Shown here in pieces: positions 23,102 through 61,900 of a stretch of DNA of 64,000 bases (the first letter of the stretch is position 1; the number at the start of each line of letters is the position of its first letter). Location: contig CAZSQN010000002.1 in NCBI GenBank assembly GCA_964609095.1, positions 88,066 through 152,065 of the forward strand, given 5' to 3'. Made by a program: the position numbers and the translations under genes. The notes beneath the pieces were generated by a model. It ran no database searches, was not told the origin of the DNA, and worked only from the letters and a program-made list of their open reading frames with translations. The stretch comes from an uncultured Gammaproteobacteria bacterium. GTDB taxonomy: Bacteria; Patescibacteriota; Patescibacteriia; CAZSQN01.

Positions 23102-23105
23102 ACCC

Positions 23106-24239: not shown

Positions 24240-24240
24240 A

Positions 24241-36197: not shown

Positions 36198-36210
36198 TTC
36201 TTTCTCTCTC

Positions 36211-37254: not shown

Positions 37255-37312
37255 CCTGTTTTTCCATTTGTAGTAATCGCTATGTTCTACCCAGCCAATC
37301 ATAAAATAAAAA

Positions 37313-38059: not shown

Positions 38060-38064
38060 AAAAA

Positions 38065-39060: not shown

Positions 39061-39061
39061 A

Positions 39062-40429
39062 TCAAAGATGGCTGGGCAAACCGGGAATGTTGTCGTAGCC
39101 CAGATTGCTGTAATGAATATCGGCAAATTTGGCAATTCTATCGGCGCCGTACAATTTCCATCCGTCAAAAATCAACGCTGGTTTTTTCATCAGCGGCAGA
39201 TAACGGTGAATGTCCAGATTTTTAAAATCGTGGTGGTTGGTGGCAAGAATGGCCGCGTCCGCGCCGCGAAATCCTTCTTCAAGATTAACGAATTTGAGGC
39301 CGTAGGGAGACAGCGCCTCCGACGGCACAACCGGGTCATAGCCGCAAACGTTAAAATTTTTCTCTTGCAATTTTTTGGCAATTTCCAATCCGGACGAAAA
39401 TCTGATGTCGGAAGTCGGCGGATGCCCCTTAAAAGCCAGTCCGGCAATAAATATCTTTGAGTCCCGCGCGCTTTTGCGGCTGGCTTCCATAAATCTGCTT
39501 ACCTGCCGGCAGACATAATCAGGCATCGCCTCATTTACGGCGCGGGCTTGCGTAATCAGTTTCGGCTCAAACCCTTTAGCCAGCGACGCCTCCAGCAAGA
39601 TATACGGGTCTTTGGTTAAGCAATAACCGCCCACTCCCGGGCTTGGCTGCGGCACAGCGCTGCGCTCATAACCGAAGTTGGCCGCGCTTATGACTTCGTG
39701 CGAATCAAGATTAAATTTATCGCAAATAAGCGCCACCTCATTGGCAAAAGCAAAAGTCACATCGCGATAAAGATTATTAACCAATTTAACCATCTCTGCC
39801 GCCTCAAGCGTGGGCAAAAGCACAATTTTGTTGGTTAAAGTCCGGAAAATATCCGCGCATAGCGCCGCGCTTGCCCTGTCATAGCCGCCGATGACCTGCG
39901 GCAGGCGCCTCAACTCGTTTAGGGCGTCGCCCTCTATGGTGCGTTCCGGCGCAAAAGCAATTGAAAAATCCTTGCCCGCCGCCAAACCGGAATATTTAAC
40001 AAGCAAGGGAATAACAAAATCGCGCGTTGTGCCCGGCGGAACGGTTGACCTTAAAATCACTATATCGCCTTGGCGCAGAACCTTGGCAATGGAGATAATG
40101 GATGATTCCAAGTCATTAAAATCCGGCTTCTTGCTCTCTCCCAGTAGCGGCGTGCCCACAGCCACAATATAAATACCGGCAATGGATTCCGAAAACGCGG
40201 TCAAAAATTTAAAACCCTTGCCCAGCTCTTGGCTTAAAAGCTCATTAACGCCGCCCTCGTGAAAATGGCTCTTGCCTTCTTCAAGCTGGCTCACCACCCG
40301 TTCGCGCTTTTCAATGCCGGTTACGGAAAAACCAAGTTCAGAAAGCGTCAAAGCCAAAGTCAAGCCCACATAGCCCATGCCGATAACGCAAACTTTTTTT
40401 TCAAAAATTAAATCATTGCCGGTAGCCAT
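39062..40429 (-). CDS. Nucleotide-sugar dehydrogenase (UDP-glucose/UDP-ManNAc 6-dehydrogenase family)
   Basis: …KKVCVIGMGYVGLTLALTLSELGFSV…; full length with C-terminal domain. Confidence 0.8.
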   Translation of the reverse strand: MATGNDLIFEKKVCVIGMGYVGLTLALTLSELGFSVTGIEKRERVVSQLEEGKSHFHEGGVNELLSQELGKGFKFLTAFSESIAGIYIVAVGTPLLGESKKPDFNDLESSIISIAKVLRQGDIVILRSTVPPGTTRDFVIPLLVKYSGLAAGKDFSIAFAPERTIEGDALNELRRLPQVIGGYDRASAALCADIFRTLTNKIVLLPTLEAAEMVKLVNNLYRDVTFAFANEVALICDKFNLDSHEVISAANFGYERSAVPQPSPGVGGYCLTKDPYILLEASLAKGFEPKLITQARAVNEAMPDYVCRQVSRFMEASRKSARDSKIFIAGLAFKGHPPTSDIRFSSGLEIAKKLQEKNFNVCGYDPVVPSEALSPYGLKFVNLEEGFRGADAAILATNHHDFKNLDIHRYLPLMKKPALIFDGWKLYGADRIAKFADIHYSNLGYDNIPGLPSHL

Positions 40430-40436
40430 AATCATT

Positions 40437-41498
40437 TTATTCAAAATGCTCAAGCTTAATCTGCTCATCAACGGCTATGGCAGAAATAATTCTTTTCCCG
40501 CATAATTTTTCCGCCATCTCCGGCGGAAGTCCGCCTTTGCTTGGGCGCTTAAAGGCAATCATCTCCCGCGTCAAAATCGTTCCGGCAATCAAATCGCCGG
40601 CCGCGACCAAGCTCTGCCCGGCCCAATCTCTTTGCCGCGACAAAAAATCCAGACGCTCGTCCTCCGGTATGTTGCGAAGGGCGGATTCCATATCGCGAAT
40701 CTGCTTAACCATCAGCGCAAACTCATCAGGAAGAAGCGCGCCCGCGTTATCAAGCGATCTCGGATCGTTTTTGTCAAAAGTAAGATGTTTTTCCACAACA
40801 ACGGCTCCCAAAACAACTGCCCCAAGCGGCGCGTGCCAGCCGACAGTATGGTCGGAAATGCCTGCTGGAACTTCAAGCAAATCGCCCAAGCGCTTCATCC
40901 GTCCCAAATTCGCCATCTCGTAAGGCGTGGGATAAGCCGTCACGCAATGAAGCGCGATAATCTCTTTGGCGCCGGCTGATTTTAACGTCTCCATTGCCGC
41001 CCGCGCCTCATCTTCGCTTTGCAAACCAAAAGAGATAATCACGGGCTTGCCTCGTCTTCCGACATTCCGCAAAAATTCCAGATTATGCGCTTCGCCCGAG
41101 CCGATTTTAAAAAGCGGCTGATTCATTTCTTCATCCAGAAAATCCAAACTTTCATCATCGTGCGCGGTGGCAAACACGGCGATGCCGCGTTCTCGCGCGT
41201 AAGCAAACAATTCCTTAATTTCATCAAAAGACATTTCTTTTTCTTTGACCCGATTAAACCAATCATAGCCGAGTTCCGTCTCCAGCCGGGCGCTTACTTT
41301 TTTACTGACAAGCTGTTCGGTCCTCCAGGCCTGAAATTTAACGGCATCGGCTTTGGCCGCTACCGCCGCATCCACTTGTTTCTTTGCCAAATCCAACTGT
41401 CCGTAATTTGTCACCCCACCCTCGCAAATGACAAAAACCGGCTGCCCTCGGCCGATGTTTTTATTGCCCAATTTAACTGTTTTTATCTCTAAATCCAT
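40437..41498 (-). CDS. NeuB-family nonulosonic acid synthase (stand-alone; sialic/pseudaminic/legionaminic acid synthase-like)
   Basis: …PVFVICEGGVTNYGQLDLAKKQVDAAVAAKADAVKFQ…; C-terminal SAF domain. Confidence 0.78.
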   Translation of the reverse strand: MDLEIKTVKLGNKNIGRGQPVFVICEGGVTNYGQLDLAKKQVDAAVAAKADAVKFQAWRTEQLVSKKVSARLETELGYDWFNRVKEKEMSFDEIKELFAYARERGIAVFATAHDDESLDFLDEEMNQPLFKIGSGEAHNLEFLRNVGRRGKPVIISFGLQSEDEARAAMETLKSAGAKEIIALHCVTAYPTPYEMANLGRMKRLGDLLEVPAGISDHTVGWHAPLGAVVLGAVVVEKHLTFDKNDPRSLDNAGALLPDEFALMVKQIRDMESALRNIPEDERLDFLSRQRDWAGQSLVAAGDLIAGTILTREMIAFKRPSKGGLPPEMAEKLCGKRIISAIAVDEQIKLEHFE

Positions 41499-41696
41499 AA
41501 ATGTTTCAATTAGTGGAGTATAACCCGAAGGTTCAATTTTGGCAATATACCTAAAAATGGCTAAAATTAGCCATCTTGCCTACCTACCCCCTTGCGCTAA
41601 ATGACAAGGCGTGCTAATCTGCCCTTTCAAGCGCATTGCTTGATGCTCCGCGGCGGAGAACGCCGAAAACCGCACCTTAAAAATGGAGGTTAGCCA

Positions 41697-41996
41697 ATGC
41701 CTCTGTGGCACATCTGCTTGATTTCTTTTCATCAAGACGCGCCTGAATCAGTGAGACGGGAAATCTACGACCGCTATCAAACCCTGGACGCGGACTGCGG
41801 CGGGGCTGGCGCGGGCATCCTCTTTTGGAAAGTTGCGTGGAATCTTGATTTGCGGAAAAACATCCACCTGGTGGAAATCTCCGTGTTTACGAATAACGAC
41901 GCCCTGCAGAGATTCCGGCGGCATCCCAAGCATATGGAACTCACCGACATTTTGAGAGAAATTGCCGACTGGCAAGTCGGCGATATTCACCAATAA
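41697..41996 (+). CDS. Small Dabb-type (stress-responsive alpha/beta-barrel) protein
   Basis: About 100 aa; …HICLISF…HLVEISVF…HPKH…; RBS tggagg; the only plus-strand gene in a 30-kb minus-strand array. Confidence 0.45.
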   Translation: MPLWHICLISFHQDAPESVRREIYDRYQTLDADCGGAGAGILFWKVAWNLDLRKNIHLVEISVFTNNDALQRFRRHPKHMELTDILREIADWQVGDIHQ

Positions 41997-42015
41997 ATTC
42001 TTTAGAATAGCCAAA

Positions 42016-42046
42016 GAGCGGAAGAAATTCCGCTCTTTTTCATTTG
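42016..42046 (+). terminator. Intrinsic terminator after the Dabb-like gene
   Basis: agagcgga-agaaatt-ccgctct followed by ttttcattt. Confidence 0.65.
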
Positions 42047-42056
42047 GCAGTTTTAG

Positions 42057-42770
42057 TTATTTTTTATTCTTATGCGATAGATACGCTTCAATCAATTCCA
42101 AATCCTCTTTGTAATCTATATCCATTGAATAAATCGGCGGGACTACTATGGGATAATTCCTCTTGCCTTCCAGGCGGCCGCTGCCCAAAAGCGTTTCGCG
42201 GCTGGTAAGCCAGAGATTGGCCGCGTGATAAAATTTTGGTTTGGATTTGCCGATATCCTGATAATGAAGCTCCTCCTGCCAAAAACCGATCGTTCCATCC
42301 TCGTTCATTTTGCGCACATTGTAAGGGTGATTGATAGTATCAACCAAAGAAACTGTTACAACCGAATCGGCTTTCTTCTCCAGCGCCAAAGCAATGGCGG
42401 CTTCTATCTGTTCTGAAGCAATCAAGGGCGTAGCCGCCTGCAAAAGTATGGAATAATCAACGCGATAATTCTCTTTTTCTTCCAATTGTTCCACCGTATA
42501 TTTAATCGCCTCTATAACCGGGCTTATGTCCCCCGCCAAATCCGCCGGACGCATAAAAGGCACTTCGGCGCCGCAATCTTTAGCCGCCGCGGCTATTTTG
42601 TCATCATCGGTTGAAACAATTACCCTATCAACCGATTTCGCGCCAAGGGCGGCGGAGATTGGATAAGAAATCAGCGGTTTGCCCAAAAGAGGATAGACAT
42701 TTTTTCCGGGAAATCTTTTACTGCCGCCCCGCGCCGGAATCAAAACCACGAAATTATCTGAATAAGTCAT
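42057..42770 (-). CDS. Second CMP-nonulosonic/KDO-type cytidylyltransferase
   Basis: …VVLIPARGGSKRFPGKNVYPLLGKPLISYPI…. Confidence 0.8.
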   Translation of the reverse strand: MTYSDNFVVLIPARGGSKRFPGKNVYPLLGKPLISYPISAALGAKSVDRVIVSTDDDKIAAAAKDCGAEVPFMRPADLAGDISPVIEAIKYTVEQLEEKENYRVDYSILLQAATPLIASEQIEAAIALALEKKADSVVTVSLVDTINHPYNVRKMNEDGTIGFWQEELHYQDIGKSKPKFYHAANLWLTSRETLLGSGRLEGKRNYPIVVPPIYSMDIDYKEDLELIEAYLSHKNKK

Positions 42771-43500
42771 AAAATGTTTTGACGCTTAAAACGGAAATCA
42801 GCACGGAAACGATAATCATCGTATGCCGGGGAGGCATTCTCTTGCAAACGTAAGCCGCGAACGGAGCAGCCAGCACGCCTCCAATGAGCAGCCCCGCCAC
42901 CACCTGCCAATGAGTTATGCCGACTATCGGCGTAAGAATGACAACGATGGTCAGGGAAACAAAAAATTCAACGGCGTTTGTTGAACCAACGGCAAAACGC
43001 GGATTATTTCCGCGCGCCGTAAGCGTGCTTCCAACTATCGGCCCCCAGCCGCCGCCTCCGACCGCGTCCAAAAACCCGCCCAAAAAACCAATAGGGGCGA
43101 TTTTAGTATGCACCGGCTTGGTTTTAATAATTTTAAAGGCCTTATAAAGAATAAAAAGGCCCATGCAAAAAAGATAAACAGTGACGGCAAATTTCAAAAA
43201 TCTGCCGGAAACCAAGGTTAGGACCACCGCTCCGAAAGCTCCTCCGGCCATTCCGGGAACCAGCAATTTTTTAAATAACTGTTTGTCTATGTTTTTAAAT
43301 TTAAAATGCGAAATAGCCGAAACAAAGGTGGTGAATATCTCGGCAAAATGCACGCTGGCGCTGGTAATGGCCGGCGGCGTACCCATAGCCAAAAGCAAAG
43401 AGCTCGCGCTAATGCCGTAAGCCATGCCTAGGGCGCCATCAATCATCTGCGCGGCAAAACCCACGATAATAAAAAAGATTAAATCATTTTCTAAAATCAT
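42754..43500 (-). CDS. TauE/SafE-family (DUF81) sulfite/sulfonate permease
   Basis: Two repeated halves with Gly-rich …GGGGWGPIVGSTL… motifs; 7-8 TM. Confidence 0.75.
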   Translation of the reverse strand: MILENDLIFFIIVGFAAQMIDGALGMAYGISASSLLLAMGTPPAITSASVHFAEIFTTFVSAISHFKFKNIDKQLFKKLLVPGMAGGAFGAVVLTLVSGRFLKFAVTVYLFCMGLFILYKAFKIIKTKPVHTKIAPIGFLGGFLDAVGGGGWGPIVGSTLTARGNNPRFAVGSTNAVEFFVSLTIVVILTPIVGITHWQVVAGLLIGGVLAAPFAAYVCKRMPPRHTMIIVSVLISVLSVKTFYDLFR

Positions 43501-43515
43501 GAACGCGGATTGAAT

Positions 43516-44514
43516 TTATTTTTCAGCAAAGAACCGCAATTTTAGGCCGATGCCGAGTTCGTTCATTTTCTGTTCAAGCATCGCCACATTGTCTTTATTA
43601 GCCAAAAACTCGCGGAATTTGTCCGGAAAATATTTATTTTCTTCGTCTCCAAACGGGTCTAAAAACTGCAAATGATTAAAAATTGAATCTTTCCCGGAAT
43701 AAACCGTGTCAATCTCGCACCTATTGAATCCGGCGGTTTTAAATAACCGCTCCAGAGTGCGGCCGGAAAAATAATTCAAATGGTTCCTGCCGGTAAAAGT
43801 TCTGGCCGTTCCGTGCAAAATCATATAAGCCAAGCTTTCCACATTGGGACATCGTCCCAAAAAGATTCCTCCCGGTTTTAAAATCCTGACGATTTCTTTC
43901 ATCACGGCAAGCGGCTGGGGCAAGTGCTCTATCACGCCAAACATTGACACCGCGTCAAAACTGTTGTCGGGAAACTTGCAATCCTCAAGGAGCTTCCGCT
44001 CCACCTTAACGCCGTACATTTCCTCGGCGTAAGACGCTGTTTTTTCGTTTAATTCCAAGCCAACCGTGTCATAACCCAAGTCCTTGCCGGCTTTCAGAAA
44101 AAGGCCGATGGAACATCCGATATCCAGAACTTTGCCTCCCGCGGGTATTTTTGTTTTAAGCTTATCGTAATACGTCTTATAAAGCTCAATATCGGTCCTC
44201 TGCTGTTCCGATGAGAGAACGACCTTCATAAAGGTCTCATGCGAAGGAACATCCTCATTGTAATATTTTAATATGGCTTTTTCTTTTAACTGCGGGTTGA
44301 CGTAAACAAAAGTGCAATTTCCGCATCTAACGAAATCAAAGCCGTTTTTGACAAAAAGATGGTCAAAAAGCGGCGAAGCGCAAATCCGGCAATTTATTTT
44401 CTCCGTCAATTCAGAACGGACTTTGCCGGTTTGCGGATCTATAAGCTCTTCCAATTCCTTATCTCTATAGAAAAAAAATTCGTTCCTATGCGTCGCCTTG
44501 TCAAAATTGCTCAT
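43516..44514 (-). CDS. Class I SAM-dependent methyltransferase with N-terminal Zn-ribbon
   Basis: CRIC…CGNC; motif I VLDIGCSIGLF. Confidence 0.8.
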   Translation of the reverse strand: MSNFDKATHRNEFFFYRDKELEELIDPQTGKVRSELTEKINCRICASPLFDHLFVKNGFDFVRCGNCTFVYVNPQLKEKAILKYYNEDVPSHETFMKVVLSSEQQRTDIELYKTYYDKLKTKIPAGGKVLDIGCSIGLFLKAGKDLGYDTVGLELNEKTASYAEEMYGVKVERKLLEDCKFPDNSFDAVSMFGVIEHLPQPLAVMKEIVRILKPGGIFLGRCPNVESLAYMILHGTARTFTGRNHLNYFSGRTLERLFKTAGFNRCEIDTVYSGKDSIFNHLQFLDPFGDEENKYFPDKFREFLANKDNVAMLEQKMNELGIGLKLRFFAEK

Positions 44515-44534
44515 ATAAATTATTCTATTTACCC

Positions 44535-44607
44535 CGTTAGAAAGACCCTCCTAAATAAATCCAACGAACCCGCTTGTCATAAATTTATAGAATGGACTTT
44601 CTAACGG
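44535..44607. repeat. 14-bp perfect inverted repeat pair separated by 45 bp
   Basis: accccgttagaaag … ctttctaacggggt. Confidence 0.7.
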
Positions 44608-44628
44608 GGTTTAATTAAAATCTTAAAT

Positions 44629-45801
44629 TTAATTTTGCCGCCATTTAATCTTTGGCAAAATAACGGATTTGTCAATTAAACGTTCGGCGTTTTTAATCTT
44701 CACAAGCATGGAATTGACCAGTTCTTCAGAAAGTTTCGTGGGGACAAGGCCTAATCCCAAAAGCTTATCATTCTTCGGATTGTAATAATGCTCTTCTTTT
44801 TCTATGCGGGGATTTTCCAAATGCTCTATCTTAACGTCTATGCCCAGTTTTGCCGCGGCGCGGGCAACCGTTTCGGCCAATTCCATAATGGAAAACACTT
44901 CCGTAAATTGGTTAAAAACCCTGAATTCGCCCGGGGCACCTGGATTTAAGACGGCGAGTTCCACGCATTGCAAGGTGTCGCGGATATTTAAAAATCCGCG
45001 CTTTTGGCCGCCCTTGCCATAAACCGTTAAAGGCATTCCGGCGACCGCCTGCACGCAAAATCTGTTCAAAGCGGTTCCAAAGACATCGTCATAATGAAAA
45101 CTCGTCCTTAAATCATCATGCAAGTTTATTTCTTCCGTTTCCAGCCCATAAACAACTCCCTGGTTCAAATCAGTCGCCTTAAGTCCCCAGACGCGGCAGG
45201 CAAATTCTATATTGTGGCTGTCATGAACTTTGCTCAAATGATAAAAAGAGCCCGGCTGCTTGGGAAAAGGCAGCCGGTCGCTTCTGCCTTTATGGTTTAT
45301 TTCTATATGGCCTTCTTCAATATCTATATTTGGCGTTCCGTATTCGCCCATTGTTCCCAGCTTTACCAAATGAGCGTCAGGCAAAGAATGCCGCATGGCA
45401 AAAAGCACGTTTAAAGTGCCGATGACATTATTTTTTTGGGTCAAAACGGCATTGTGCCTGGAGCGCATTGAGTATGGCGCCGACGGCTGTTCCGCGTAAT
45501 GCACAATGGCGTCGGGACGAAACTCTTCCATTACCCTGTAGATAAAACGGACATCTTCGGCAATATCTCCGACATAGAGCTTGATATCGCCTCTGGCAAC
45601 GGTTTTCCAGGTCGCCATGCGCGCCGGCAAAAGCGGTATTGGGTAAAGAGGCGCGACCCCAACTTGCGCTTCCCAGGCGCGCTTAATCATATTGTCCACC
45701 ACGGCGACCTCGTGCCCGAGACGCGAAAAATGCATGGCCGTAGGCCAGCCCAGGTAACCATCGCCTCCCAATATAAGGATACGCAATTTTTTGTCGCTCA
45801 T
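44629..45801 (-). CDS. sqdB: UDP-sulfoquinovose synthase (SQD1/SqdB/Agl3-like)
   Basis: Long collinear match to the SQD1 signature: ILGGDGYLGWPTAMH…VHYAEQPSAPYSM…LTQKNNVIGTLNVLFA…LVKLGTMGEYGTPNIDIEEGHIEI…LPFPKQPGSFYHLSKVHDSHNIEFACRVWGLKATDLNQGVVYG…ALNRFCVQA; the ORF-track N-extension is probably not real. Confidence 0.85.
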   Translation of the reverse strand: MSDKKLRILILGGDGYLGWPTAMHFSRLGHEVAVVDNMIKRAWEAQVGVAPLYPIPLLPARMATWKTVARGDIKLYVGDIAEDVRFIYRVMEEFRPDAIVHYAEQPSAPYSMRSRHNAVLTQKNNVIGTLNVLFAMRHSLPDAHLVKLGTMGEYGTPNIDIEEGHIEINHKGRSDRLPFPKQPGSFYHLSKVHDSHNIEFACRVWGLKATDLNQGVVYGLETEEINLHDDLRTSFHYDDVFGTALNRFCVQAVAGMPLTVYGKGGQKRGFLNIRDTLQCVELAVLNPGAPGEFRVFNQFTEVFSIMELAETVARAAAKLGIDVKIEHLENPRIEKEEHYYNPKNDKLLGLGLVPTKLSEELVNSMLVKIKNAERLIDKSVILPKIKWRQN

Positions 45802-45817
45802 TTTAGTGGAATGAAAA

Positions 45818-46504
45818 TTATAAACGGGTATGCAGACCGCATTCGCCTCCCAGATTCTGCGTGCCCGTAAATCGTCCGGCGCGCTCAAACTGCCCTTGGC
45901 GGCCTCCGCCTTCGCGCACCTTGCCGCCGGTAGTGCAGGGCTTGCAGCCCAGCGACAAATAACCATGGTCATAGAGCGGATGGTACCGGAGATTATTTTC
46001 TTTTATGTACTGCCAAACATCGTCTTTGGTCCAGAAAGCAATGGGGTTTATTTTGGCGATTTTGCCGGCCTCAACAATGGGCGTATTTTTGCGATACTCG
46101 GTTTCGTCGCGGCGCAAACCGGTAATCCAGGCGTCAAAGCGCGGCAAGGCGCTCTCAATGGCCGGAATCTTCATCTCGCAGCATTTATATTGGTCGTTCT
46201 TGATGAACGAGTCCCCATATTGTTCGTCTATCCGCTTAATGTCTTCCGAACCGGGATGCAGCCATTCAAAATTTAATTTCAATTCTTCAACCAAAGAATT
46301 GCCGTAAGACAATGTTTCTTCAAATTCATAACCGGTATCAATGCCCAAAAAACATAAATCGGGTTTGGCCTTGGTGGCCAAATCCACGATGACCCGCGAA
46401 TCCTTGCCAAAAGAGCAGGCGGCAAAAATGCGCGGATAGGCCTTGACCGCCAGTTTAATTATAGTTTGGGAGAGATCGGCTTTTTCTTTTAGAGTCAAAT
46501 TCAT
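45818..46504 (-). CDS. cysH: Phosphoadenylyl-/adenylyl-sulfate reductase (CysH family, Fe-S type)
   Basis: P-loop-like ACSFGKDSRVIVDLA; Cys pairs KCCEMK and CKPC; C-terminal ECGLH. Confidence 0.85.
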   Translation of the reverse strand: MNLTLKEKADLSQTIIKLAVKAYPRIFAACSFGKDSRVIVDLATKAKPDLCFLGIDTGYEFEETLSYGNSLVEELKLNFEWLHPGSEDIKRIDEQYGDSFIKNDQYKCCEMKIPAIESALPRFDAWITGLRRDETEYRKNTPIVEAGKIAKINPIAFWTKDDVWQYIKENNLRYHPLYDHGYLSLGCKPCTTGGKVREGGGRQGQFERAGRFTGTQNLGGECGLHTRL

Positions 46505-46508
46505 ACTT

Positions 46509-47684
46509 TTAAATCAATTTTTTTCTTAAAAGCTTCTCGTCTAAAGAGATTTTTTTTAGAACGGCGACAATCTTTTCCGCGGCCCGACCGTCTCCCAGGC
46601 GATAACCGCATTTTCTAAGTTTACCCGCAAAACTCTTATCTTCTAAAACATATTTGAGCGCGCCAATGATGGATTTTGTTTTGCCGTCGGAATCAACGAT
46701 ATTCTCTTCCCTGTCTCTGCCTTCTTGCCGCCTGCCGACGTTAACCGCCCCAAGATGCAAATAAGGCGCTTCAACAAAAGCGCAGGAAGAATTGCCGACA
46801 AGCGCGCCCGCGCCGGCAAGCAGCCCTAAAAAATCAAGATTATCTATGTTTTTCCGCACCAAAAATTGCGGGTCGTCGGAAATTTCCGAAATCGCGGAGA
46901 GCACGCCGTCGTATCCCGGATCGGAACAAGGATAAATAACAAGGGAACGGCCGCCAAAACTTTTAACCGCGGCAAATATATTGCGCGCCGCCCGGTAATT
47001 GCCCGCGCTTGTTAAATACGTATCCGGATGGTAAATGACGATAAAAAAATCTTCGCTTGGCCGCAGCCCGTATTTTGGCTTAACCAAACTTGTATCAGCA
47101 TACATTTGCTTGACGATCCTGTCAATGTAAAGCGAGCCAACCGGCTTTATGCGCCAGGCCTCTTCGCCCAAACGGCGAAGGCGGCCCGCGGCAACGGTTG
47201 TCTCCGGAAAATGAAAATGCGCCAATTTGGCAATAACATGCCTTTGCACATCGTCAATATTGCCGGATATCTCCCCGCCCTGCGTATGGAAAACCGGGAT
47301 TCCCAAATTCAAGGCCGCAAACCCGACCATCAAATGTTCTCCCCTGTCGGCATGGACCATAACAATATCCGGTTTCATTTTTTTAAGAGCCGAAGCCGCC
47401 TTTTGCTCGCAAACGCCAAGATTGCGCGCGCGGGAGAGCGATGAGTCGTCGCCTCCGGTGCCCATATCAATAAGCGTTATTTTGGAACGGGGAAAAAACT
47501 TTTTCACCTCATTTGCCGTAGCTCCGAACTCCTTTGAAGCGTGCATATCGCCGAGAAGCCACTGGAGTTCCAGCGACGGGTCGCTGTCAATCAGTTTCGC
47601 CAAAGGAAAATACGCTCCGAAACCGCCCCGCTTGCCGGAGAAAAGACAGATTTTTCTTTTTTGGACAGTTGTAGCACGGGACAT
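46509..47684 (-). CDS. UDP-N-acetylglucosamine 2-epimerase (NeuC/LegG-type, probably hydrolysing)
   Basis: …VHADRGEHLMVGFAALNLGIPVFHTQGGEISGNIDDVQRHVIAKLAHFHF…. Confidence 0.8.
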   Translation of the reverse strand: MSRATTVQKRKICLFSGKRGGFGAYFPLAKLIDSDPSLELQWLLGDMHASKEFGATANEVKKFFPRSKITLIDMGTGGDDSSLSRARNLGVCEQKAASALKKMKPDIVMVHADRGEHLMVGFAALNLGIPVFHTQGGEISGNIDDVQRHVIAKLAHFHFPETTVAAGRLRRLGEEAWRIKPVGSLYIDRIVKQMYADTSLVKPKYGLRPSEDFFIVIYHPDTYLTSAGNYRAARNIFAAVKSFGGRSLVIYPCSDPGYDGVLSAISEISDDPQFLVRKNIDNLDFLGLLAGAGALVGNSSCAFVEAPYLHLGAVNVGRRQEGRDREENIVDSDGKTKSIIGALKYVLEDKSFAGKLRKCGYRLGDGRAAEKIVAVLKKISLDEKLLRKKLI

Positions 47685-47686
47685 AC

Positions 47687-49051
47687 TTAATCAAGCAATC
47701 CTACTATAAATTCTCCTATTCGTAAAGCCGCCTGGCCGTCAGGATTATTGCAGATAACTTTGCGCATAATCTCGCGGGCTTCCGCGTCTTCCTCCGGATG
47801 CCGCAAATACAAATTGATAAAATCCTTAAATTCCTCCATGCTCTTTGCCACTCTCACCCCGCCGGTGGCAACCACCCGCGTATAATAAGAGGTTTTGAAT
47901 AAATTATTTTCTATTGAATCCCTTTTCTTTAGTTTTTTATAGCCGTCAAAAGCGACGCAAATCACCGGTTTGCCCAAAGTGATCGCGTCCAAAGAGAGGG
48001 TTGAGGCGGGATTGACCGTCACATCAGAAACATTTAACAAATTCGCCAGATGAATCATATCCTCGCGCGTCGGGTCTCCAAGTTCGGTAAAAATATCCGA
48101 CCTTCTGTGCTTGTCATCAACATAAACATTGGGTTCTTTGGCGAAACGGGAAAATCTGTTGGCGCGGCCGTCGGCAAAATGCGAACGGATAATAAGCGAG
48201 CAGGGAAAAGCGGTTTCTCCGGAATTTACCATTTTTGCCAAAATATCCGCGATGTCCTCATCATTGGGGCCGAAAAATCCTCCGGAACCGAAAAAAATAA
48301 CTTTTCTTGACGGATCAAGGCCAAGCGATTTTAAGAAACTGCCGCGTTCGGCAAAAATCCGCTCGGAATAAATATCAAACTGCGGAAAGCCCAAAACCCT
48401 GATGCGCTCCTTTGGGAAAAGCTGGGATTTGGAAGCCAGCGTCTTTAAGCTTTCATTGTAAACAATGAGCCAGTCGGGAGCGACGCGAAATAAGTATTTA
48501 TCAAACGTGTCCCAGCTTTTGGGCATAGCCACGGTTTTAACACCGCGCCTTTTCGCCTCTTTGAGCATCATCATATCAACATTGCCCAAAATAGAAGTTG
48601 AAAAAACTAAGTCCGGATTATATTTGTCAAAAAAATGTTTGTAATACCTGTCGCGGTAAAAAGTATATTCCATCCAACGAAACGCTTTTTTGACCGATCC
48701 AAACCTGGAAAAAATACGTCCGCACAAAATCCAAATTAAAAAATTCTTTAAGGAGCGTTTTCTCCGTCCATTGCCGTAACGGGCGTGGATGTAAGCGGTT
48801 TCGGTATCCACCATGTTAATCATCAATTGGGTAAAGACATTGCGCCTAAACCAGCCGGGAATAATCTTTTTAATCGGCTCAAAAACAACATTGCCATAAT
48901 TAAATTCCCGGCGGTATTCGTCCGGAATGCGGTCTGGTAAAAAAATAACTATGCGCAAATTGGGATGCTCCCGGATAACTTTAAAAACCGCGGTTCGGAG
49001 CACATTTCTCGCCGGAATACCCTGGGTAATGACGATAAATAAGGTCTTCAT
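47687..49051 (-). CDS. TagF/TagB-like CDP-polyol phosphotransferase family protein (paralog 1)
   Basis: C-terminal …DVTVNPASTLSLDAITLGKPVICVAFDGY…; paralogous to 50957-52312 and 54783-56165. Confidence 0.65.
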   Translation of the reverse strand: MKTLFIVITQGIPARNVLRTAVFKVIREHPNLRIVIFLPDRIPDEYRREFNYGNVVFEPIKKIIPGWFRRNVFTQLMINMVDTETAYIHARYGNGRRKRSLKNFLIWILCGRIFSRFGSVKKAFRWMEYTFYRDRYYKHFFDKYNPDLVFSTSILGNVDMMMLKEAKRRGVKTVAMPKSWDTFDKYLFRVAPDWLIVYNESLKTLASKSQLFPKERIRVLGFPQFDIYSERIFAERGSFLKSLGLDPSRKVIFFGSGGFFGPNDEDIADILAKMVNSGETAFPCSLIIRSHFADGRANRFSRFAKEPNVYVDDKHRRSDIFTELGDPTREDMIHLANLLNVSDVTVNPASTLSLDAITLGKPVICVAFDGYKKLKKRDSIENNLFKTSYYTRVVATGGVRVAKSMEEFKDFINLYLRHPEEDAEAREIMRKVICNNPDGQAALRIGEFIVGLLD

Positions 49052-49926
49052 AAAAATTTATTGACAAATTTTGCCGGCAAATTTTTGACTTTATGGGCCG
49101 GCGGGAGCAGGGTCTCAAAAAATCTGATAATTTGGATTTTTTTTCTAAATTTTTTTAAGTCGGGCTTTATTCCAAACTCCGCCGAGGCAACTGCCGGACG
49201 CGCGTCATCCATTCTCGCGGCAATAACTCTAATCGCTCTCGCGCCATCGGTCAAAGCAAATTTGATGATTTTTAGACCGGCTTTGGAAAGAACTAAATTT
49301 AAAGTGTGGGGGCTGTAATGGAAAAGGTGCCCCGGCTTAAAATAGCTGATGATATTTTTATTAATGCTTTCCACATTGGGAACTTCAATATAAATCATCC
49401 CTCCGTTTCCAAGCAAATCGCGGAGCGCTTCAAATTTTACGAGAGGGTCAGGCAGGTGTTCAAGCACATGGCGAAGCACGAAGAGATTAAATTTTTTATC
49501 TTTATTCGTCTCCACAAATTTCGACAGCGACGAAACAACTATTTTGGCGCGGGAAACCCGGCCGGCAAACTGCGCGGCGGCGCCATCCGGTTCAAGTCCG
49601 ATAAGTTCGGCGGATGTTCTCTCTTCAAGCGCTTTGAGCAAACGGCCATAGCCGCAGCCGATGTCAGCTATTCTGTCCGCGGCGTTCATTTCCTTTATGT
49701 ATTCATCCGCGAAATCAAGCGCGTCGGCATATTTATACAATGACTTCATCAGATTATCGCTTTCATTCGGAGCCCTGTTCCATTCCAAAACAGAATAATC
49801 TCCGGAAGTAAAAAGCAGGCCGCAATTCCGGCAGCCGGCAAGAACCGCCTCCGGTTTCCGGCGCAAAACGCAAATCAACATTTTCAAATCCGGACCGGCA
49901 TTACATAAAACGCAGTTCAACCGCAT
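49048..49926 (-). CDS. Class I SAM methyltransferase with Zn-ribbon
   Basis: CVLCN…CRNCG; motif I IADIGCGYGRLL. Confidence 0.8.
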   Translation of the reverse strand: MRLNCVLCNAGPDLKMLICVLRRKPEAVLAGCRNCGLLFTSGDYSVLEWNRAPNESDNLMKSLYKYADALDFADEYIKEMNAADRIADIGCGYGRLLKALEERTSAELIGLEPDGAAAQFAGRVSRAKIVVSSLSKFVETNKDKKFNLFVLRHVLEHLPDPLVKFEALRDLLGNGGMIYIEVPNVESINKNIISYFKPGHLFHYSPHTLNLVLSKAGLKIIKFALTDGARAIRVIAARMDDARPAVASAEFGIKPDLKKFRKKIQIIRFFETLLPPAHKVKNLPAKFVNKFL

Positions 49927-49931
49927 ATAAA

Positions 49932-50951: not shown

Positions 50952-50956
50952 AAAAT

Positions 50957-52312
50957 TTACTTCAACAATGATTGCAAAAAAGCCGCGATGCGGACAGAGG
51001 ATCGTCCATCCAATTTATAGCACATTCTGGAGCGTAAAAACTCCCGCCCAGCTTTATCCAGCTCTGGGTTTTCCAAATAAGCATTGACATGTTTCTTTAA
51101 AGCATCGGGCCCATCGGCTGCGCGAACGCCTCCGCTTTTCACCACCTTCTGATAATAAGACGTATTTAAAAGCGCCGAACCGTGTTCATCCTCTTTTAAA
51201 GCCACGCAAATCACCGGCTTATCAAATACCGCGGCATCAAGCGAGAGGCTTGAAGACGGATTAATAGTCACATCGGCAGAACGCAAAAAGTTTCCGAGCA
51301 ATTCCATGTCGCTTTTTTGCGGATCGGCCACGTTGCCGTAATCAGGCAATCGTTTAACGCTGTCATCAACGTAGACATTTGGCAATCCGGCAAAACAGTT
51401 AAACCTGACGGCGTTCTTATCTAAAAAATGCGGCCTGATTATAAGCGAACATTGTTTAACAAGCTGATTATCTTTGATAAAATCGTACAAAAAATTACCG
51501 ATATCCATATCGGAAGGCCCGTACAGTCCGCCGGAACCAAAAAAGATAACCTTACGGCCCGGATTAAGGCCCAATCCCAAAAGAAACGCGTCCCTGTCAA
51601 ACGGCTTTTTCATCTGCTCAACATAAGTATCAAAGTTAGGAAACCCGGTGACCGTTATTCCAGATTCCGGCACATCCTGAGATTTTACCGCTACTTGTTT
51701 CAAATCTTCGTTTTGCGCCATAAGATAATCGGGCTTAACGGGAAAAAGATATTTTTCAAAAGTATCCCATCCTTTGGGCATGGAAACCGTAGTAATGCCC
51801 CGCCTTTTCGCCTGCTTCAAAAGCATGACATCATACTTATTCATAATAGAAGTGGAAAAAACAACATCCGGCTTATACTTTTCAAAAATAGACTCATAAA
51901 CCATATCTTCCCTAAACAAAAACATCTCCAAACGCCTAAAAAATCTTTTGACCGTATTCAAACGGCCAAAAAGAGCGGACCAAACTATAAGAAAACCCAG
52001 ATAAAATAAGCTTCTGCCCTTCCCCGCTTGCCCGTAATGCGCCTTAAACATGGCAATGTCGCTATGAATAAGCGGCAGAATCAGATTATTAAAAAAAAGT
52101 TTCAACCGCGTGGTTGATTGTTCCTCCAAGCCAATAAAGGCGACATTGGACGCCAGAAATTCCCGCTCAAACTCGGGCGGCACATGACCGGTAGTTAATA
52201 TGTATATAAAAACATCCGGCGTCTCCTTAATAAGAGGTAAAACATCCGTGCGCAAAATATTTCTGGCAACCAAACCCGGCTCAGCGCGTATAAAAATATT
52301 TTTTCTTTGCAT
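50957..52312 (-). CDS. TagF/TagB-like CDP-polyol phosphotransferase family protein (paralog 2)
   Basis: Collinear with 47687-49051 (…PDVVFSTSIMNKYDVMLLKQAKRRGITTVSMPKGWDTFEKYLF…). Confidence 0.65.
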   Translation of the reverse strand: MQRKNIFIRAEPGLVARNILRTDVLPLIKETPDVFIYILTTGHVPPEFEREFLASNVAFIGLEEQSTTRLKLFFNNLILPLIHSDIAMFKAHYGQAGKGRSLFYLGFLIVWSALFGRLNTVKRFFRRLEMFLFREDMVYESIFEKYKPDVVFSTSIMNKYDVMLLKQAKRRGITTVSMPKGWDTFEKYLFPVKPDYLMAQNEDLKQVAVKSQDVPESGITVTGFPNFDTYVEQMKKPFDRDAFLLGLGLNPGRKVIFFGSGGLYGPSDMDIGNFLYDFIKDNQLVKQCSLIIRPHFLDKNAVRFNCFAGLPNVYVDDSVKRLPDYGNVADPQKSDMELLGNFLRSADVTINPSSSLSLDAAVFDKPVICVALKEDEHGSALLNTSYYQKVVKSGGVRAADGPDALKKHVNAYLENPELDKAGREFLRSRMCYKLDGRSSVRIAAFLQSLLK

Positions 52313-52345
52313 AAAACCGGAAGCTGGAATTATTCGGACAGGGAT

Positions 52346-53356: not shown

Positions 53357-53397
53357 AAATTTTACGCTTAATTATAAAATATATAATAACCAAAATT

Positions 53398-54771: not shown

Positions 54772-54782
54772 GAAACGGATGA

Positions 54783-56165
54783 TTAAGTATCGGCGCGCCG
54801 GATTTGCGCGATCGCCTCCGCAATCCGGTCGCCTACATGGCCGTCATATTTATAAACAATTTTTCGCCGCAATTGCTCGCGCTCCGCCGCTTCCGCTTCC
54901 GGATGAAGCAAATACCGGTTAATTTCGCTAATAAGCGAATCAGGACCGTCTGCCAATCTTATGGCGCCGGTTTTAAGCCAATAGTCATGATGGTCGTATT
55001 CTTTGTAAAACTGATTTTTAGAAGTGAAATACGGCGTCGGCAAAAGATCAAAATTTAAAGAAATCACCGGCTTGTCCAAGCAAGAGACGTCAAAAGCAAA
55101 AGTGGAACCGGTCATCACCGTTAGCGAGCTGTGATAAATAAGATTGGCAAGCCAAATGATATTCTCGCGAGACGGATACCATTTATCCACAAACGCGGAC
55201 TGGTCCGTGCGGGAATCATCTATATAGACCTCCGCGTTGCCGATAAATTTCTTAAACGGATTGTTCGTATCGCGGGGATGAATGCGGGCAACGATGCTTA
55301 CCGGTTTTACAAATCTATTTTCATGTTTGGCGTTTAAAAGCAAATCAACCATTTCAGCGTCATCCCGGCTTTGCGCCGCCTCTGAAGCGTAAAGGACTAT
55401 ATTTGAAGCCGGATCAACGTTGATTTTTTTGCAAAACTCGGCGCGGGACGTAAAAATTGAAGCATCGTGATAAATATCATATTGGGAAATGCCCACCGGC
55501 AAAACGCGCTCCGGCTTAAAATTATTATGCGTTAACGCCTCTTGCTTCATAAGTTCATTCCAAACCAAAAGCAAATCCGGTTTGGCTCTGATTACTCCTT
55601 TTGAAGTAAGGTTGTCTATGGAAAGCACGCAGCCGATGCTTGGCACGCCTTGCGCTTTCGCGCGTTTGATAAACCGATGCTCCATCTGAACATGAGTTGA
55701 GACGGCCGCGTCCGGCTTATGTTCATCAAAAATTTTTTTAAAAATCTTGTCGGGAAAAAATTTGTCGTCCAGCCGCCGCAATAATTCCAACGCTCTCATG
55801 TTTCCGCGCAAAAAAAAGTGCGGCATGGAAAGAGCCGCGTAGAGCAGGTATTTTTTCCTAAGAAGCATTTTCTTTTTAAACCAGCGGACTGTCCTGGTGT
55901 TTAACGTGCTGTTTATAAGCGCGACCAAAAATCTTTCGGCAAAACCGCGGCCGTGATTTATTAAATAAAGTTTGCCGTAATCCGGATAAGGAATAAGAGT
56001 TATTTTTTCTCCCTTGTAAACCTCGCGCAAAAGGCGAAAACCGCTCTCCGGAGCGGCAATAATAATGTCGCATCCGCGGGCAAGCAATTTTTCAATGACC
56101 CCCGCGGAAATCATGTTGCGCGCGGCAATGCCAAAGGGAAAAGTGATAAGAATTTTTTTGGACAT
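54783..56165 (-). CDS. TagF/TagB-like CDP-polyol phosphotransferase family protein (paralog 3)
   Basis: C-terminal …SSLTVMTGSTFAFDVSCLDKPVISLNFDLL…Y…; same architecture as the other two. Confidence 0.65.
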   Translation of the reverse strand: MSKKILITFPFGIAARNMISAGVIEKLLARGCDIIIAAPESGFRLLREVYKGEKITLIPYPDYGKLYLINHGRGFAERFLVALINSTLNTRTVRWFKKKMLLRKKYLLYAALSMPHFFLRGNMRALELLRRLDDKFFPDKIFKKIFDEHKPDAAVSTHVQMEHRFIKRAKAQGVPSIGCVLSIDNLTSKGVIRAKPDLLLVWNELMKQEALTHNNFKPERVLPVGISQYDIYHDASIFTSRAEFCKKINVDPASNIVLYASEAAQSRDDAEMVDLLLNAKHENRFVKPVSIVARIHPRDTNNPFKKFIGNAEVYIDDSRTDQSAFVDKWYPSRENIIWLANLIYHSSLTVMTGSTFAFDVSCLDKPVISLNFDLLPTPYFTSKNQFYKEYDHHDYWLKTGAIRLADGPDSLISEINRYLLHPEAEAAEREQLRRKIVYKYDGHVGDRIAEAIAQIRRADT

Positions 56166-58750: not shown

Positions 58751-58761
58751 AAAATAAAAAA

Positions 58762-59493: not shown

Positions 59494-59497
59494 ATGT

Positions 59498-60778: not shown

Positions 60779-60795
60779 AATTTGCCGAATGAAAT

Positions 60796-61896: not shown

Positions 61897-61900
61897 AAAA

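Follow-up and report, generated by a model that had tools for sequence, protein, structure and literature searches.

The window, a 64,000-nucleotide stretch of DNA analysed as a whole, comes from a member of the Patescibacteria, a groundwater bacterium with a tiny genome assigned to Candidatus Uhrbacteria. The preliminary description had singled out three genes on its minus strand between 42754 and 46504, encoding CysH, an SQD1 homolog and a TauE/SafE permease; all three are found there, and their profile matches are so strong that they cannot be due to chance. The functional unit is wider, spanning approximately 40437-49051 (Table 1), and reads NeuC - CysH - SQD1 - methyltransferase - TauE - cytidylyltransferase - (terminator) - NeuB. 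Followed in the direction of transcription, the permease comes two genes after SQD1 (downstream, where the preliminary description had placed it upstream), and the Zn-ribbon methyltransferase separates the two. The cytidylyltransferase and Dabb genes converge on a hairpin that is likely a bidirectional terminator, and a promoter-like site precedes the NeuB1 gene at 41545-41517. The Dabb gene, on the opposite strand, is outside the conserved cassette and absent from the other loci fetched. The surroundings, which include Bac_transf, Wzx, GT2 and GT4 genes, are indeed those of a glycan locus; the classical glycosyltransferases (GTs) of the window number five (three GT2, two GT4). The interleaving with NeuC, a CMP-sugar synthetase and a NeuB-type synthase had escaped the preliminary description.

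Table 1. Features of the SQD1 locus and its surroundings, by position in the window.
Feature	Coordinates	Strand	Support
NeuB-type nonulosonic acid synthase, SQD1-linked subtype (NeuB1)	40437..41498	-	PF03102 + SAF domain
Dabb (stress-responsive alpha/beta barrel) gene	41697..41996	+	PF07876, 36.8 bits
Hairpin between convergent cytidylyltransferase and Dabb genes	42013..42038	.	11-bp stem
CTP_transf_3 cytidylyltransferase (CMP-nonulosonate synthetase type)	42057..42770	-	PF02348
TauE/SafE (TSUP) anion permease; sulfate/sulfite uptake or sulfite export	42754..43500	-	PF01925
Class I SAM methyltransferase with N-terminal Zn ribbon	43516..44514	-	PF13489, PF08241
SQD1/SqdB-type UDP-6-sulfo-6-deoxyhexose (UDP-sulfoquinovose) synthase	44629..45801	-	1qrr match, catalytic residues
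CysH, Fe-S (APS-type) sulfonucleotide reductase, sulfite-making	45818..46504	-	228 aa; PF01507, NF002537
NeuC-type hydrolysing UDP-sugar 2-epimerase	46509..47684	-	PF02350, TIGR03568
TagF/TagB-like GT-B transferase, paralog 1; candidate CMP-nonulosonate transferase	47687..49051	-	
TagF-like GT-B transferase, paralog 2	50957..52312	-	
TagF-like GT-B transferase, paralog 3	54783..56165	-	

Analysis of the SQD1 homolog indicated a genuine, full-length SQD1-type enzyme with every catalytic residue present, in agreement with its first assignment. The open reading frame originally listed for it (44629-45972) is spuriously extended at its 5' end into cysH, and the true start is at 45801 (MSDKKLRIL...) or at 45786 (the NCBI call, 385 aa). 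Along its whole length the protein resembles Arabidopsis SQD1 (1qrr; residues 7-389, E = 1.9e-153, 514 bits), with 57.9% identity, and the NAD-binding motif of extended SDRs, GGDGYLG, occupies residues 12-18. The window protein and 82 homologs all retain Thr145, Tyr182 and Lys186 (SQD1 numbering), as well as T145-M146-G147, His96, E148, Y149, S180 and H183. Arg101 is replaced by Pro, which also occupies this position in the majority of bacterial homologs from either context group. The T-M-G motif is an SQD1-specific signature (PMC8987622), and mutational data exist for catalytic residues of the family (PMC4388408). By far the best family is NF041015, an equivalog named only 'UDP-sulfoquinovose synthase', in which the protein scores 478.7 bits over its full length, below the cut-off of 575; the next best family scores 44.6 bits. 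The first shell of the active site is unchanged, which suggests UDP-glucose as the substrate, and nothing specific to its clade in the vicinity of the catalytic residues points to UDP-GlcNAc.

The CysH-type reductase likewise proved to be what it had been taken for, a genuine Fe-S sulfonucleotide reductase complete in domain, cluster cysteines and ECGLH motif. It scores 144 bits against PF01507 and passes NF002537 (183.6 bits, cut-off 154), while staying below the cut-off of the APS_reductase model TIGR02055 (151.3 vs 235.3); its best solved relative is the sulfonucleotide reductase of M. tuberculosis (7lhr, E = 1.7e-30). Cys108-Cys109 and Cys187-x-x-Cys190, the cysteines of the [4Fe-4S] cluster that mark APS-using enzymes, are kept in the orthologs of loci L011, L023, L042 and L006, and the ECGLH motif with its catalytic Cys is found at residues 221-225. 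Orthologs with 58-68% identity reside in the SQD1 cassettes of L011 and L042, as CysH-SQD1 pairs, and of the Falkowbacteria locus L023, as CysH-CysD-CysN-SQD1. The gammaproteobacterial locus L006 reads SQD1-CysD-CysN-CysH and the alphaproteobacterial L049 SQD1-CysD-CysNC, so that CysH and/or CysDN stand directly beside SQD1 within the cassette in at least these five further loci, from three phyla. Such recurrence is difficult to account for if sulfite is not the co-substrate, and the adjacency lends indirect support to sulfite-dependent formation of UDP-6-deoxy-6-sulfoglucose by the SQD1 homolog. The identity of the TauE/SafE permease was confirmed (PF01925, 125.1 bits, gathering cut-off 32.6); it is polytopic, with multiple hydrophobic segments along the protein, and is not part of the conserved unit, being absent from all other loci fetched. 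Its family spans a sulfate importer (CysZ of C. glutamicum) and sulfite exporters, and prediction of substrate or direction from sequence is considered unfeasible (PMC5840216). Orthologs of the methyltransferase occur inside the cassettes of L014 (59%), L023 (39%), L006 (38%) and L030 (33%).

The genes flanking this sulfur module belong to nonulosonic-acid enzyme families. NeuC (PF02350, 191 bits) passes the NeuC_NnaA model TIGR03568 (289.6 bits, cut-off 235.9), its orthologs (39-64% identity) adjoin SQD1 in other loci, and SQD1-adjacent NeuCs form clades of their own. NeuB1 (PF03102, 228.9 bits, with SAF domain PF08666) aligns to NmNeuB over residues 8-348, including the Arg of the KRP motif, and stays under the equivalog cut-offs of NeuB (265.7 vs 399.65) and PseI (215.9 vs 340.25). 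The cytidylyltransferase (PF02348, 95 bits) does not reach the cut-off of its closest NCBIfam model, PseF (147.1 vs 205.7), and has orthologs of 57-64% identity in the cassettes of L011, L014, L015 and L023. Judged by these scores, NeuB1 and the cytidylyltransferase are of a distinct subtype, outside the characterised equivalogs (Neu5Ac synthase, PseI, PseF). The signature residues of NeuB1 are T30, Y32, R83, H113, F157, R200, H222, R247 and W292; a non-Asn residue at 30, an aromatic residue at 32, Arg83, His113 and Trp292 are common to the SQD1-linked NeuBs of two divergent lineages, which do not have the canonical G-P-[H/A]-x-x-S loop of unlinked NeuBs. By alignment, the predicted active-site signature of SQD1-linked NeuBs is remodelled and includes a new Arg and a new His.

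The association of these genes with SQD1 was followed through the 80 species-representative loci closest to the window SQD1. NeuC, NeuB and/or a CTP_transf_3 enzyme lie within a few kb of SQD1 in 25 of them, often co-directional and less than 150 bp away, and in 14 loci no more than 160 bp separate SQD1 from a cytidylyltransferase; the 25 linked loci represent at least four phyla (Patescibacteria, Actinomycetota, Alpha- and Gamma-proteobacteria, Desulfobacterota). In a neighbour-joining tree the nonulosonic-acid-linked SQD1 proteins, that of the window included, form one clade, split from plant SQD1 and the Alicyclobacillus homolog with a bootstrap of 78/100. A nonulosonic-acid gene is present within 6 kb for 27 of the 29 members of this clade, which was partly defined after the tree was seen, compared with 1 of 53 proteins outside it, where the plant/Alicyclobacillus homologs (GT4 neighbour) and those of Solirubrobacterales (GT2/GT-C neighbours) are placed. 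The association also holds in reverse: SQD1 and the cytidylyltransferase are on all seven informative contigs with a NeuB at least 50% identical to that of the window (L086, L087, L092, L096, L138-L140) and on none of about ten long contigs with other NeuB types. This reciprocal interleaving of SQD1, NeuC, NeuB and cytidylyltransferase across phyla suggests a nonulosonic-acid pathway in which the UDP-sulfosugar is an intermediate.

TagF-like GT-B proteins are the only transferase type repeatedly attached to the cassette in the loci compared, no classical GT family being so attached across phyla. They are related to validated Pse/Leg transferases. Those of Tannerella forsythia (Tanf_01245, TFUB4_00887, BFO_1060) are likewise TagB/TagF-like GT-B enzymes beside nonulosonic-acid genes, and the window paralogs match the BFO_1060 family model, but with 69 and 55 bits they are far under its cut-off of 200. 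Structure searches of the TagF-like proteins cannot separate a CMP-sugar transferase from a CDP-alditol phosphotransferase.

We propose that the region is a dedicated sulfite-to-sugar module inside a nonulosonic-acid (sialic-acid-like) operon, turning a UDP-6-sulfo-sugar into a CMP-9-deoxy-9-sulfo-nonulosonic acid, a reading that we consider evenly poised between right and wrong. Sulfate or sulfite would enter the cell, possibly via the TauE-family permease, and the Fe-S CysH would reduce APS to sulfite. The SQD1-type SDR would oxidise C4 of a UDP-hexose and eliminate water across C5-C6, then add sulfite onto C6 and re-reduce C4 to yield a UDP-6-deoxy-6-sulfohexose. Rather than passing to a glycosyltransferase, this product would be hydrolysed by the adjacent NeuC-type 2-epimerase, and the specialised NeuB would condense the freed 6-sulfo-hexose with phosphoenolpyruvate to a 9-deoxy-9-sulfo-nonulosonic acid. 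The CTP_transf_3 enzyme would provide the CMP-activated sugar, which the methyltransferase may decorate, and TagF/TagB-like GT-B enzymes would transfer it to an undecaprenyl-linked surface glycan. We infer the NeuC, NeuB, CMP-activation and transfer steps from the conserved order of the genes, from co-phylogeny and by analogy to legionaminic acid.

In the legionaminic-acid route, an SDR alters C6 of a nucleotide sugar ahead of NeuC-like and NeuB-like steps: a LegB/PglF-type 4,6-dehydratase is followed by LegG (NeuC-like), LegI (NeuB-like) and LegF. The window shares with this route and with the NeuCBA sialic acid pathway both logic and enzyme families, the order of a C6-modifying SDR, a hydrolysing 2-epimerase, a PEP-condensing NeuB-type synthase and a CTP_transf_3 CMP-synthetase being that of legionaminic acid. 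Its C6-modifying SDR is, however, a sulfite-adding SQD1 and not a dehydratase, and the predicted C9 would hence bear C-SO3 instead of H or OH; its NeuB is the remodelled subtype, and its core cassette holds no aminotransferase or acetyltransferase. A 5,6-dehydratase step by an SDR has precedent in the Pen/Pal route to CMP-pseudaminic acid in Bacillus thuringiensis, in which an SDR-made UDP-sugar 5,6-ene feeds a nonulosonic-acid pathway (PMC8987622); the Pen/Pal ene becomes a 4-keto-6-deoxy sugar, whereas that of the window is expected to take up sulfite. With the SQDG pathway (SQD1/SqdB and SQD2/SqdX) the module shares the first enzyme, an extended SDR with T145/Y182/K186, TMG and H183, and sulfite as sulfur donor; it differs in having no SqdX/SQD2 partner, in the family clade of its SQD1, in its NeuC, NeuB and CMP-sugar synthetase neighbours and in the sulfite-making CysH within the operon.

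Several observations count against a sulfo-nonulosonic acid. All characterised NeuC-type enzymes, to our knowledge, act on 2-acetamido sugars; with SQD1 unchanged, either NeuC must accept a 2-hydroxy sugar or SQD1 must use UDP-GlcNAc. No ATP sulfurylase was found within the 64-kb window, L003 and L005 have NeuC-SQD1-cytidylyltransferase-TagF with no NeuB within 10 kb, and in L049 and L020 a canonical-type NeuB adjoins SQD1. Several conserved neighbours of unknown family, among which c18, c65 and c28 recur in related loci, could be sulfoquinovosyltransferases. We know of no report of a sulfonated nonulosonic acid, and full-text literature searches returned no paper joining the sulfosugar and nonulosonic-acid pathways; the proposed product is thus without chemical precedent.

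The main rival is the model of the preliminary description, in which a glycosyltransferase of the locus uses UDP-sulfoquinovose directly, in analogy to the Agl3-dependent use in Sulfolobus. The nonulosonic acid would then be made separately, and both sugars would enter one glycan, either a surface polysaccharide or one on protein, perhaps forming a conserved sulfoquinovose-nonulosonate unit. Agl3 offers a direct precedent for UDP-sulfoquinovose as glycan donor (PMC4388408), NeuC, NeuB and the CMP-synthetase alone make up a full pathway from UDP-GlcNAc, and the five classical GTs, the recurring neighbours of unknown family, the canonical NeuBs beside SQD1 and its unchanged first shell are all compatible with two separate residues. 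Across phyla, however, the cassette has no recurrent classical GT family, SQD1 sits between NeuC and the cytidylyltransferase/NeuB and not beside a GT, and none of the linked NeuB, NeuC and cytidylyltransferase enzymes is of the canonical Neu5Ac, Pse or Leg kind; SQD1-specific subtypes of NeuB and NeuC would remain unexplained by mere co-use in one glycan. We regard this model as a serious possibility, albeit on balance a doubtful one. As in the N-glycan of Sulfolobus acidocaldarius, the UDP-sulfoquinovose synthase would serve a non-lipid cell-surface glycan, but Sulfolobus transfers sulfoquinovose itself, while the synteny of the window suggests further conversion. The scan of window proteins, in which five ORFs were left without a family, detected no STT3/PglB/AglB-type oligosaccharyltransferase. 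The Agl3-like use is not specifically supported, and the analogy, given the interleaving with NeuC, CMP-sugar synthetase and NeuB, is probably too simple.

It is highly improbable that the SQD1 homolog is a sulfite-independent UDP-hexose 5,6-dehydratase feeding a deoxy-nonulosonic acid route in the manner of Pen, with CysH and TauE serving general sulfur assimilation and adjacent to it by chance. Agl3 without sulfite yields UDP-glucose-5,6-ene (PMC4388408), and Pen/Pal set the precedent (PMC8987622). Against it stand the CysH and/or CysDN genes beside SQD1 in at least five further loci and the retained T-M-G signature.

The view taken at the outset, that the product is more plausibly not a sulfolipid, is supported: the window has no SqdX/SQD2-like lipid glycosyltransferase and no GT4 within 20 kb of SQD1, and the protein is outside the group with sulfolipid contexts. 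That it serves to make the head-group donor of SQDG, the membrane sulfolipid known from cyanobacteria, plants, Rhodobacter and Alicyclobacillus, is very improbable: its closeness to plant SQD1 and the GT4 genes of the window would fit, but all its neighbours are glycan or nonulosonic-acid genes, Patescibacteria are generally without de novo lipid synthesis, and the two GT4s, 27% and 25% identical to the GT4 following sqdB in Alicyclobacillus, correspond along their whole length to BshA/EPS-type models and not to lipid-GT ones, with no NCBIfam lipid-GT assignment. Conserved in at least four phyla, the gene set points instead to an undescribed sulfonated nine-carbon surface sugar.

The minus strand holds nearly all genes of the window, which together form one very large glycan locus, and the SQD1 homolog encoded there has an identical counterpart in Candidatus Uhrbacteria bacterium (GCA_016181485.1, contig JACOZF010000008.1), a lineage placed in the Patescibacteria/Parcubacteria group. 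The genes from the TagF-like transferase to the CTP_transf_3 cytidylyltransferase (CytT) are separated by 2, 4, 16, 114 and 15 nt and then overlap by 17 nt, and on account of this short spacing the stretch looks like one operon. The hairpin beyond it is probably a bidirectional terminator that separates the module from the NeuB gene, which has a promoter-like site of its own. The 447-aa SQD1 ORF extends too far in the 5' direction. The TauE/SafE gene, which the preliminary description placed two genes upstream of SQD1, in fact lies downstream of it, with a methyltransferase gene between them.

Features of the SQD1 module and its surroundings in the window
Feature	Position	Strand	Placement
TagF-like GT-B	47687-49051	minus	first in transcription order
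NeuC	46509-47684	minus	after TagF-like GT-B
CysH	45818-46504	minus	after NeuC
SQD1 homolog	44629-45801	minus	after CysH
Zn-ribbon SAM methyltransferase	43516-44514	minus	between SQD1 and TauE/SafE
TauE/SafE	42754-43500	minus	after methyltransferase
CTP_transf_3 cytidylyltransferase	42057-42770	minus	after TauE/SafE
Hairpin, perfect 11-bp stem, A-run and T-run flanks	42013-42038		between convergent CytT and Dabb genes
Dabb gene, small, convergent	41697-41996	plus	
Promoter-like site	41545-41517		upstream of NeuB
NeuB-type synthase	40437-41498	minus	

That description had read CysH, SQD1 and TauE/SafE as a sulfosugar module, and all three assignments held up; neither of the two grounds for rejection that it had named applies. 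CysH is a genuine reductase (PF01507, 144 bits; NF002537, 183.6 bits, above the cut-off of 154) with the M. tuberculosis enzyme 7lhr as its closest solved structure; Cys108-Cys109 and Cys187-x-x-Cys190 are the Fe-S cluster cysteines of APS-using reductases, and the ECGLH motif with the catalytic Cys is kept at 221-225. The SQD1 homolog and Arabidopsis SQD1 (1qrr; E = 1.9e-153, 57.9% identity) align along their entire lengths; on the NCBIfam model for UDP-sulfoquinovose synthase the homolog reaches 478.7 bits, below the cut-off of 575, as against 44.6 bits for the next family. The catalytic residues Thr145, Tyr182 and Lys186 are kept, as are GGDGYLG, Met146-Gly147, Glu148, Tyr149, Ser180 and His183, and the retained residues comprise the SQD1/Agl3 signature together with residues that are mutationally important in Agl3 (PMC4388408; PMC8987622). 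TauE/SafE is a clear member of PF01925.

When the 80 closest SQD1 loci of species-representative genomes were searched with the window proteins, SQD1 was found directly beside a hydrolysing UDP-sugar 2-epimerase (NeuC), a NeuB-type synthase and a CTP_transf_3 cytidylyltransferase in 25 of them. The genes of this cassette are mostly co-directional, with gaps often below 150 bp; a TagF-like transferase is usual and frequently attached, and CysH or CysDN are optional. Carriers include Parcu-, Kaiser- and Falkowbacteria within the Patescibacteria, as well as Gaiellaceae and other Actinomycetota, Alpha- and Gammaproteobacteria, Sulfuritalea, Desulfarculales, Syntrophaceae and Desulfobacca. Typical gene orders in loci from other genomes and metagenome contigs (L-numbers) are ABC-NeuB-NeuC-CytT-SQD1-TagF (L012, L056), NeuB-NeuC-2-hydroxyacid DH-CytT-SQD1 (L034, L037), TagF-CytT-NeuC-SDR-CysH-SQD1-NeuB (L011) and TagF-NeuC-MTase-CytT-CysH-CysD-CysN-SQD1-NeuB (L023).

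The linkage is mirrored in phylogeny. An NJ tree of 82 SQD1 homologs places 29 nonulosonic-linked members, including that of the window, on one side of a split (bootstrap 78/100) and plant SQD1 on the other; a nonulosonic-acid gene lies within 6 kb of SQD1 in 27 of these 29 as against 1 of the 53 outside, the Fisher P of 3e-18 being only indicative because the set was partly delimited after the tree had been seen. The NeuCs adjoining SQD1 likewise group into clades of their own. The SQD1s themselves were compared for residues that might point to UDP-GlcNAc as substrate; no position proved strictly specific to the nonulosonic-linked clade, and both groups have the same invariant first shell.

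The association was also recovered in reverse, starting from the NeuB of the window and inspecting contigs with enough flank for SQD1. All four metagenome contigs with a NeuB at least 50% identical (L086, L087, L092, L096) carry SQD1 (64-73% identity) and CytT, as do three more long contigs from the homolog list (L138, L139, L140; 7/7 in total), and SQD1 is absent from about ten long contigs whose NeuB homologs are at most 38% identical. The window NeuB does not reach the equivalog cut-off of either Neu5Ac synthase or PseI, nor does the window CytT reach that of PseF. Compared with unlinked NeuBs, the SQD1-linked enzymes show N30 to T, F113 to H, T155 (NmNeuB numbering; window position 157) to F, a replaced G-P-H-x-x-S loop and new, near-invariant Arg83, Arg200 and Arg247, all in catalytic motifs or a few residues away from them. 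The divergent NeuBs of proteobacterial cassettes (34-41% identity) keep non-Asn30, aromatic32, Arg83, His113 and Trp292. New cationic side chains at the barrel rim would fit a sulfonate-bearing substrate, though only as a suggestion.

The analysis shows which enzyme families and catalytic residues are present, how the operon is built, that the synteny is conserved and reciprocal, and that the genes share a phylogeny; from this we infer a pathway. CysH would reduce APS to sulfite, which SQD1 would combine with a UDP-hexose to give a UDP-6-deoxy-6-sulfohexose; NeuC would then strip UDP with 2-epimerisation, the SQD1-linked NeuB (NeuB1) would condense the product with PEP to a 9-deoxy-9-sulfo-nonulosonic acid, and the cytidylyltransferase would activate this with CMP. 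Methyltransferases may modify the sugar, and the TagF-like GT-B enzymes, as candidate transferases, would transfer it. Legionaminic acid synthesis follows the same logic, an SDR there altering C6 of the nucleotide sugar first. A partial precedent exists in the synthesis of pseudaminic acid by way of the Pen/Pal 5,6-ene (PMC8987622). We propose, at about even probability, that a mobile cassette joining SQD1 and NeuC to a specialised NeuB and a CMP-synthetase, found in at least four phyla (Patescibacteria, Actinomycetota, Pseudomonadota and Desulfobacterota), makes a C9-sulfonated nonulosonic acid of the 9-deoxy-9-sulfo-Kdn or -Neu5Ac type for the cell surface. C5 may carry either OH or NHAc: the unchanged SQD1 pocket favours UDP-glucose as substrate, the NeuC substrates known to us are all 2-acetamido sugars, and WbuX N-acetyl-sugar amidotransferases (312 bits) occur near several cassettes.

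The main alternative extends the view of the preliminary description and holds that sulfoquinovose and the nonulosonic acid are separate residues of one glycan, a reading that we regard as possible if somewhat improbable. The proposal of a single sulfonated sugar is weakened by two loci without NeuB within 10 kb (L003, L005), by canonical NeuBs in two others (L049, L020) and by conserved neighbours of unknown family that could be sulfoquinovosyltransferases; moreover, the full-text literature search returned no chemical precedent for the predicted sugar. For the joint pathway speak the reciprocal linkage and the distinct NeuB subtype.

A second alternative, that SQD1 acts as a sulfite-free dehydratase, must contend with the sulfur genes of the cassettes. 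CysH orthologs (58-68% identity, same Cys motifs) directly adjoin SQD1 in L011, L023 and L042, and sulfate activation is complete within the cassette in three further lineages, namely L023, with CysD (442 bits) and CysN (494 bits) between CysH and SQD1, L006 (SQD1-CysD-CysN-CysH; 249.5 bits on the TIGR02055 APS reductase model, cut-off 235.3) and L049 (SQD1-CysD-CysNC). This argues strongly for sulfite as the SQD1 co-substrate and against the dehydratase. No ATP sulfurylase (sat, cysDN) was found within the 64-kb window, and among the loci fetched only the window has TauE. The TauE/SafE family includes one sulfate importer as well as sulfite exporters (PMC5840216), and the window protein may take up sulfate or sulfite or else release surplus sulfite.

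A sulfolipid function was rejected, in agreement with the preliminary description: the only GT4 genes of the window lie 20 kb from SQD1 (21938-24248) and show only generic similarity (27% and 25% identity) to the GT4 found in Alicyclobacillus and in one Chloroflexales genome directly behind an SQD1 homolog, in the sqdB-sqdX arrangement, and no lipid-glycosyltransferase assignment was obtained for them. Chance or misannotation for CysH and SQD1, and general cysteine assimilation as the sole role of CysH, were likewise rejected.

Outside the cassettes, SQD1 is partnered by a GT4 in Alicyclobacillus and by a GT2 and a GT-C-like membrane protein in Solirubrobacterales and Gaiellales. In the latter (L038, L041, L044, L045, L048, L053-L058, L063, L073-L082) the GT2, 34-44% identical to the PF00535 GT2 of the window, was judged by eye to resemble a polyprenol-phosphate-sugar synthase and the large polytopic protein to look GT-C-like, with Men genes nearby, also by eye. 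This suggests a further non-lipid use, polyprenyl-phospho-sulfoquinovose serving as donor for extracytoplasmic glycosylation.

Several cassettes carry additional genes. A PGDH-like D-2-hydroxyacid dehydrogenase is frequent (L009, L016, L021, L022, L030, L034, L037, L051, L139), is fused to a NeuB-type synthase in protein P0212 and is missing from the window. In Syntrophaceae locus L021, two SQD1 homologs (3396-4544; 8853-), 64% and 50% identical to that of the window, flank CytT-NeuB-NeuC. A GalE-like SDR (196 bits on the GalE model, below cut-off) lies immediately beside SQD1 in several patescibacterial cassettes (L010, L011, L015, L030, L140) and may 4-epimerise the substrate or the sulfo-sugar; a similar operon in Haloquadratum has SqdB plus two GalE (PMC1544339). 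KedN5-like B12-binding radical SAM methyltransferases (L016, L026, L043, L051) and WbuX proteins (L012, L026, L056, L069) recur beside cassettes, and further C-methylation or amidination of the predicted sugar is probable in some lineages.

The TagF-like proteins match the BFO_1060 family model at 69 and 55 bits (cut-off 200); that family was founded on Pse/Leg transferases of Tannerella forsythia that have been validated genetically and carry a TagB-like domain (PMC5420450). An AF2 model (pLDDT 95) has a GT-B fold closest to 2-epimerases, TarL and TagF. Three such paralogs lie at 47687-56165 (minus) among two Zn-ribbon methyltransferases, a radical SAM/SPASM enzyme and a Wzx flippase, and homologs elsewhere are fused to a methyltransferase (P0252, 755 aa) or a GFO/IDH/MocA oxidoreductase (P0245, 794 aa). 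Directly downstream of the cassette, 34284-40471 (minus) holds a second nonulosonic-type set. Its 637-aa NeuB is fused to AP_endonuc_2, a TIM barrel domain resembling xylose isomerase, and the other members are a UDP-ManNAc-DH-like NDP-sugar dehydrogenase, an SDR, a GFO/IDH/MocA oxidoreductase and a second cytidylyltransferase; in gammaproteobacterial L006 the SQD1 cassette is likewise followed by homologs of this CytT, NeuB and GFO enzyme. At 57638-63944 (minus), a DegT aminotransferase and a hexapeptide acyltransferase adjoin the acyl-CoA reductase LuxC and the acyl-protein synthetase LuxE together with an AMP-binding enzyme and an Fe-alcohol dehydrogenase. This looks like an acyl-activation/reduction set, which might serve to give an amino sugar an unusual N-acyl group. 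Mid-locus lies a subtilase that carries FG-GAP repeats (27723-30014). Five sizeable ORFs (461, 542, 734, 359 and 167 aa) at 11396-17181 and 19331-21080 have no Pfam family even at E = 0.01 and may encode membrane components that the glycan pathway otherwise lacks, e.g. a polymerase or ligase.

To our knowledge, sulfoquinovose is seen almost exclusively in its role as head group of the photosynthetic sulfolipid, the N-glycans of Sulfolobus being the exception. A July 2026 review of sulfoquinovose cycling covers the SqdB-SqdX route only. Our full-text literature search retrieved no paper that mentions sulfoquinovose together with either nonulosonic acids or a sialic acid synthase, and only unrelated co-mentions of sulfoquinovose with legionaminic, neuB or Patescibacteria. 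All parts belong to known families, and it is their combination and the predicted product that are new.

The locus shows that a sulfite-to-sugar module, complete and self-supplied, is kept by bacteria that are not photosynthetic and have tiny genomes. In many soil and groundwater lineages this module is genetically tied to enzymes of the sialic acid type; this widespread occurrence and its direct testability make the finding of high interest. If the proposal is true, it would define a new fate of UDP-sulfoquinovose and a new member of the sialic acid/Pse/Leg family, phosphate-free and permanently anionic, with a specific NeuB signature usable for genome mining. It would also add a new sink and source to the organosulfonate cycle and provide a candidate surface determinant for the interactions of Patescibacteria with their hosts.
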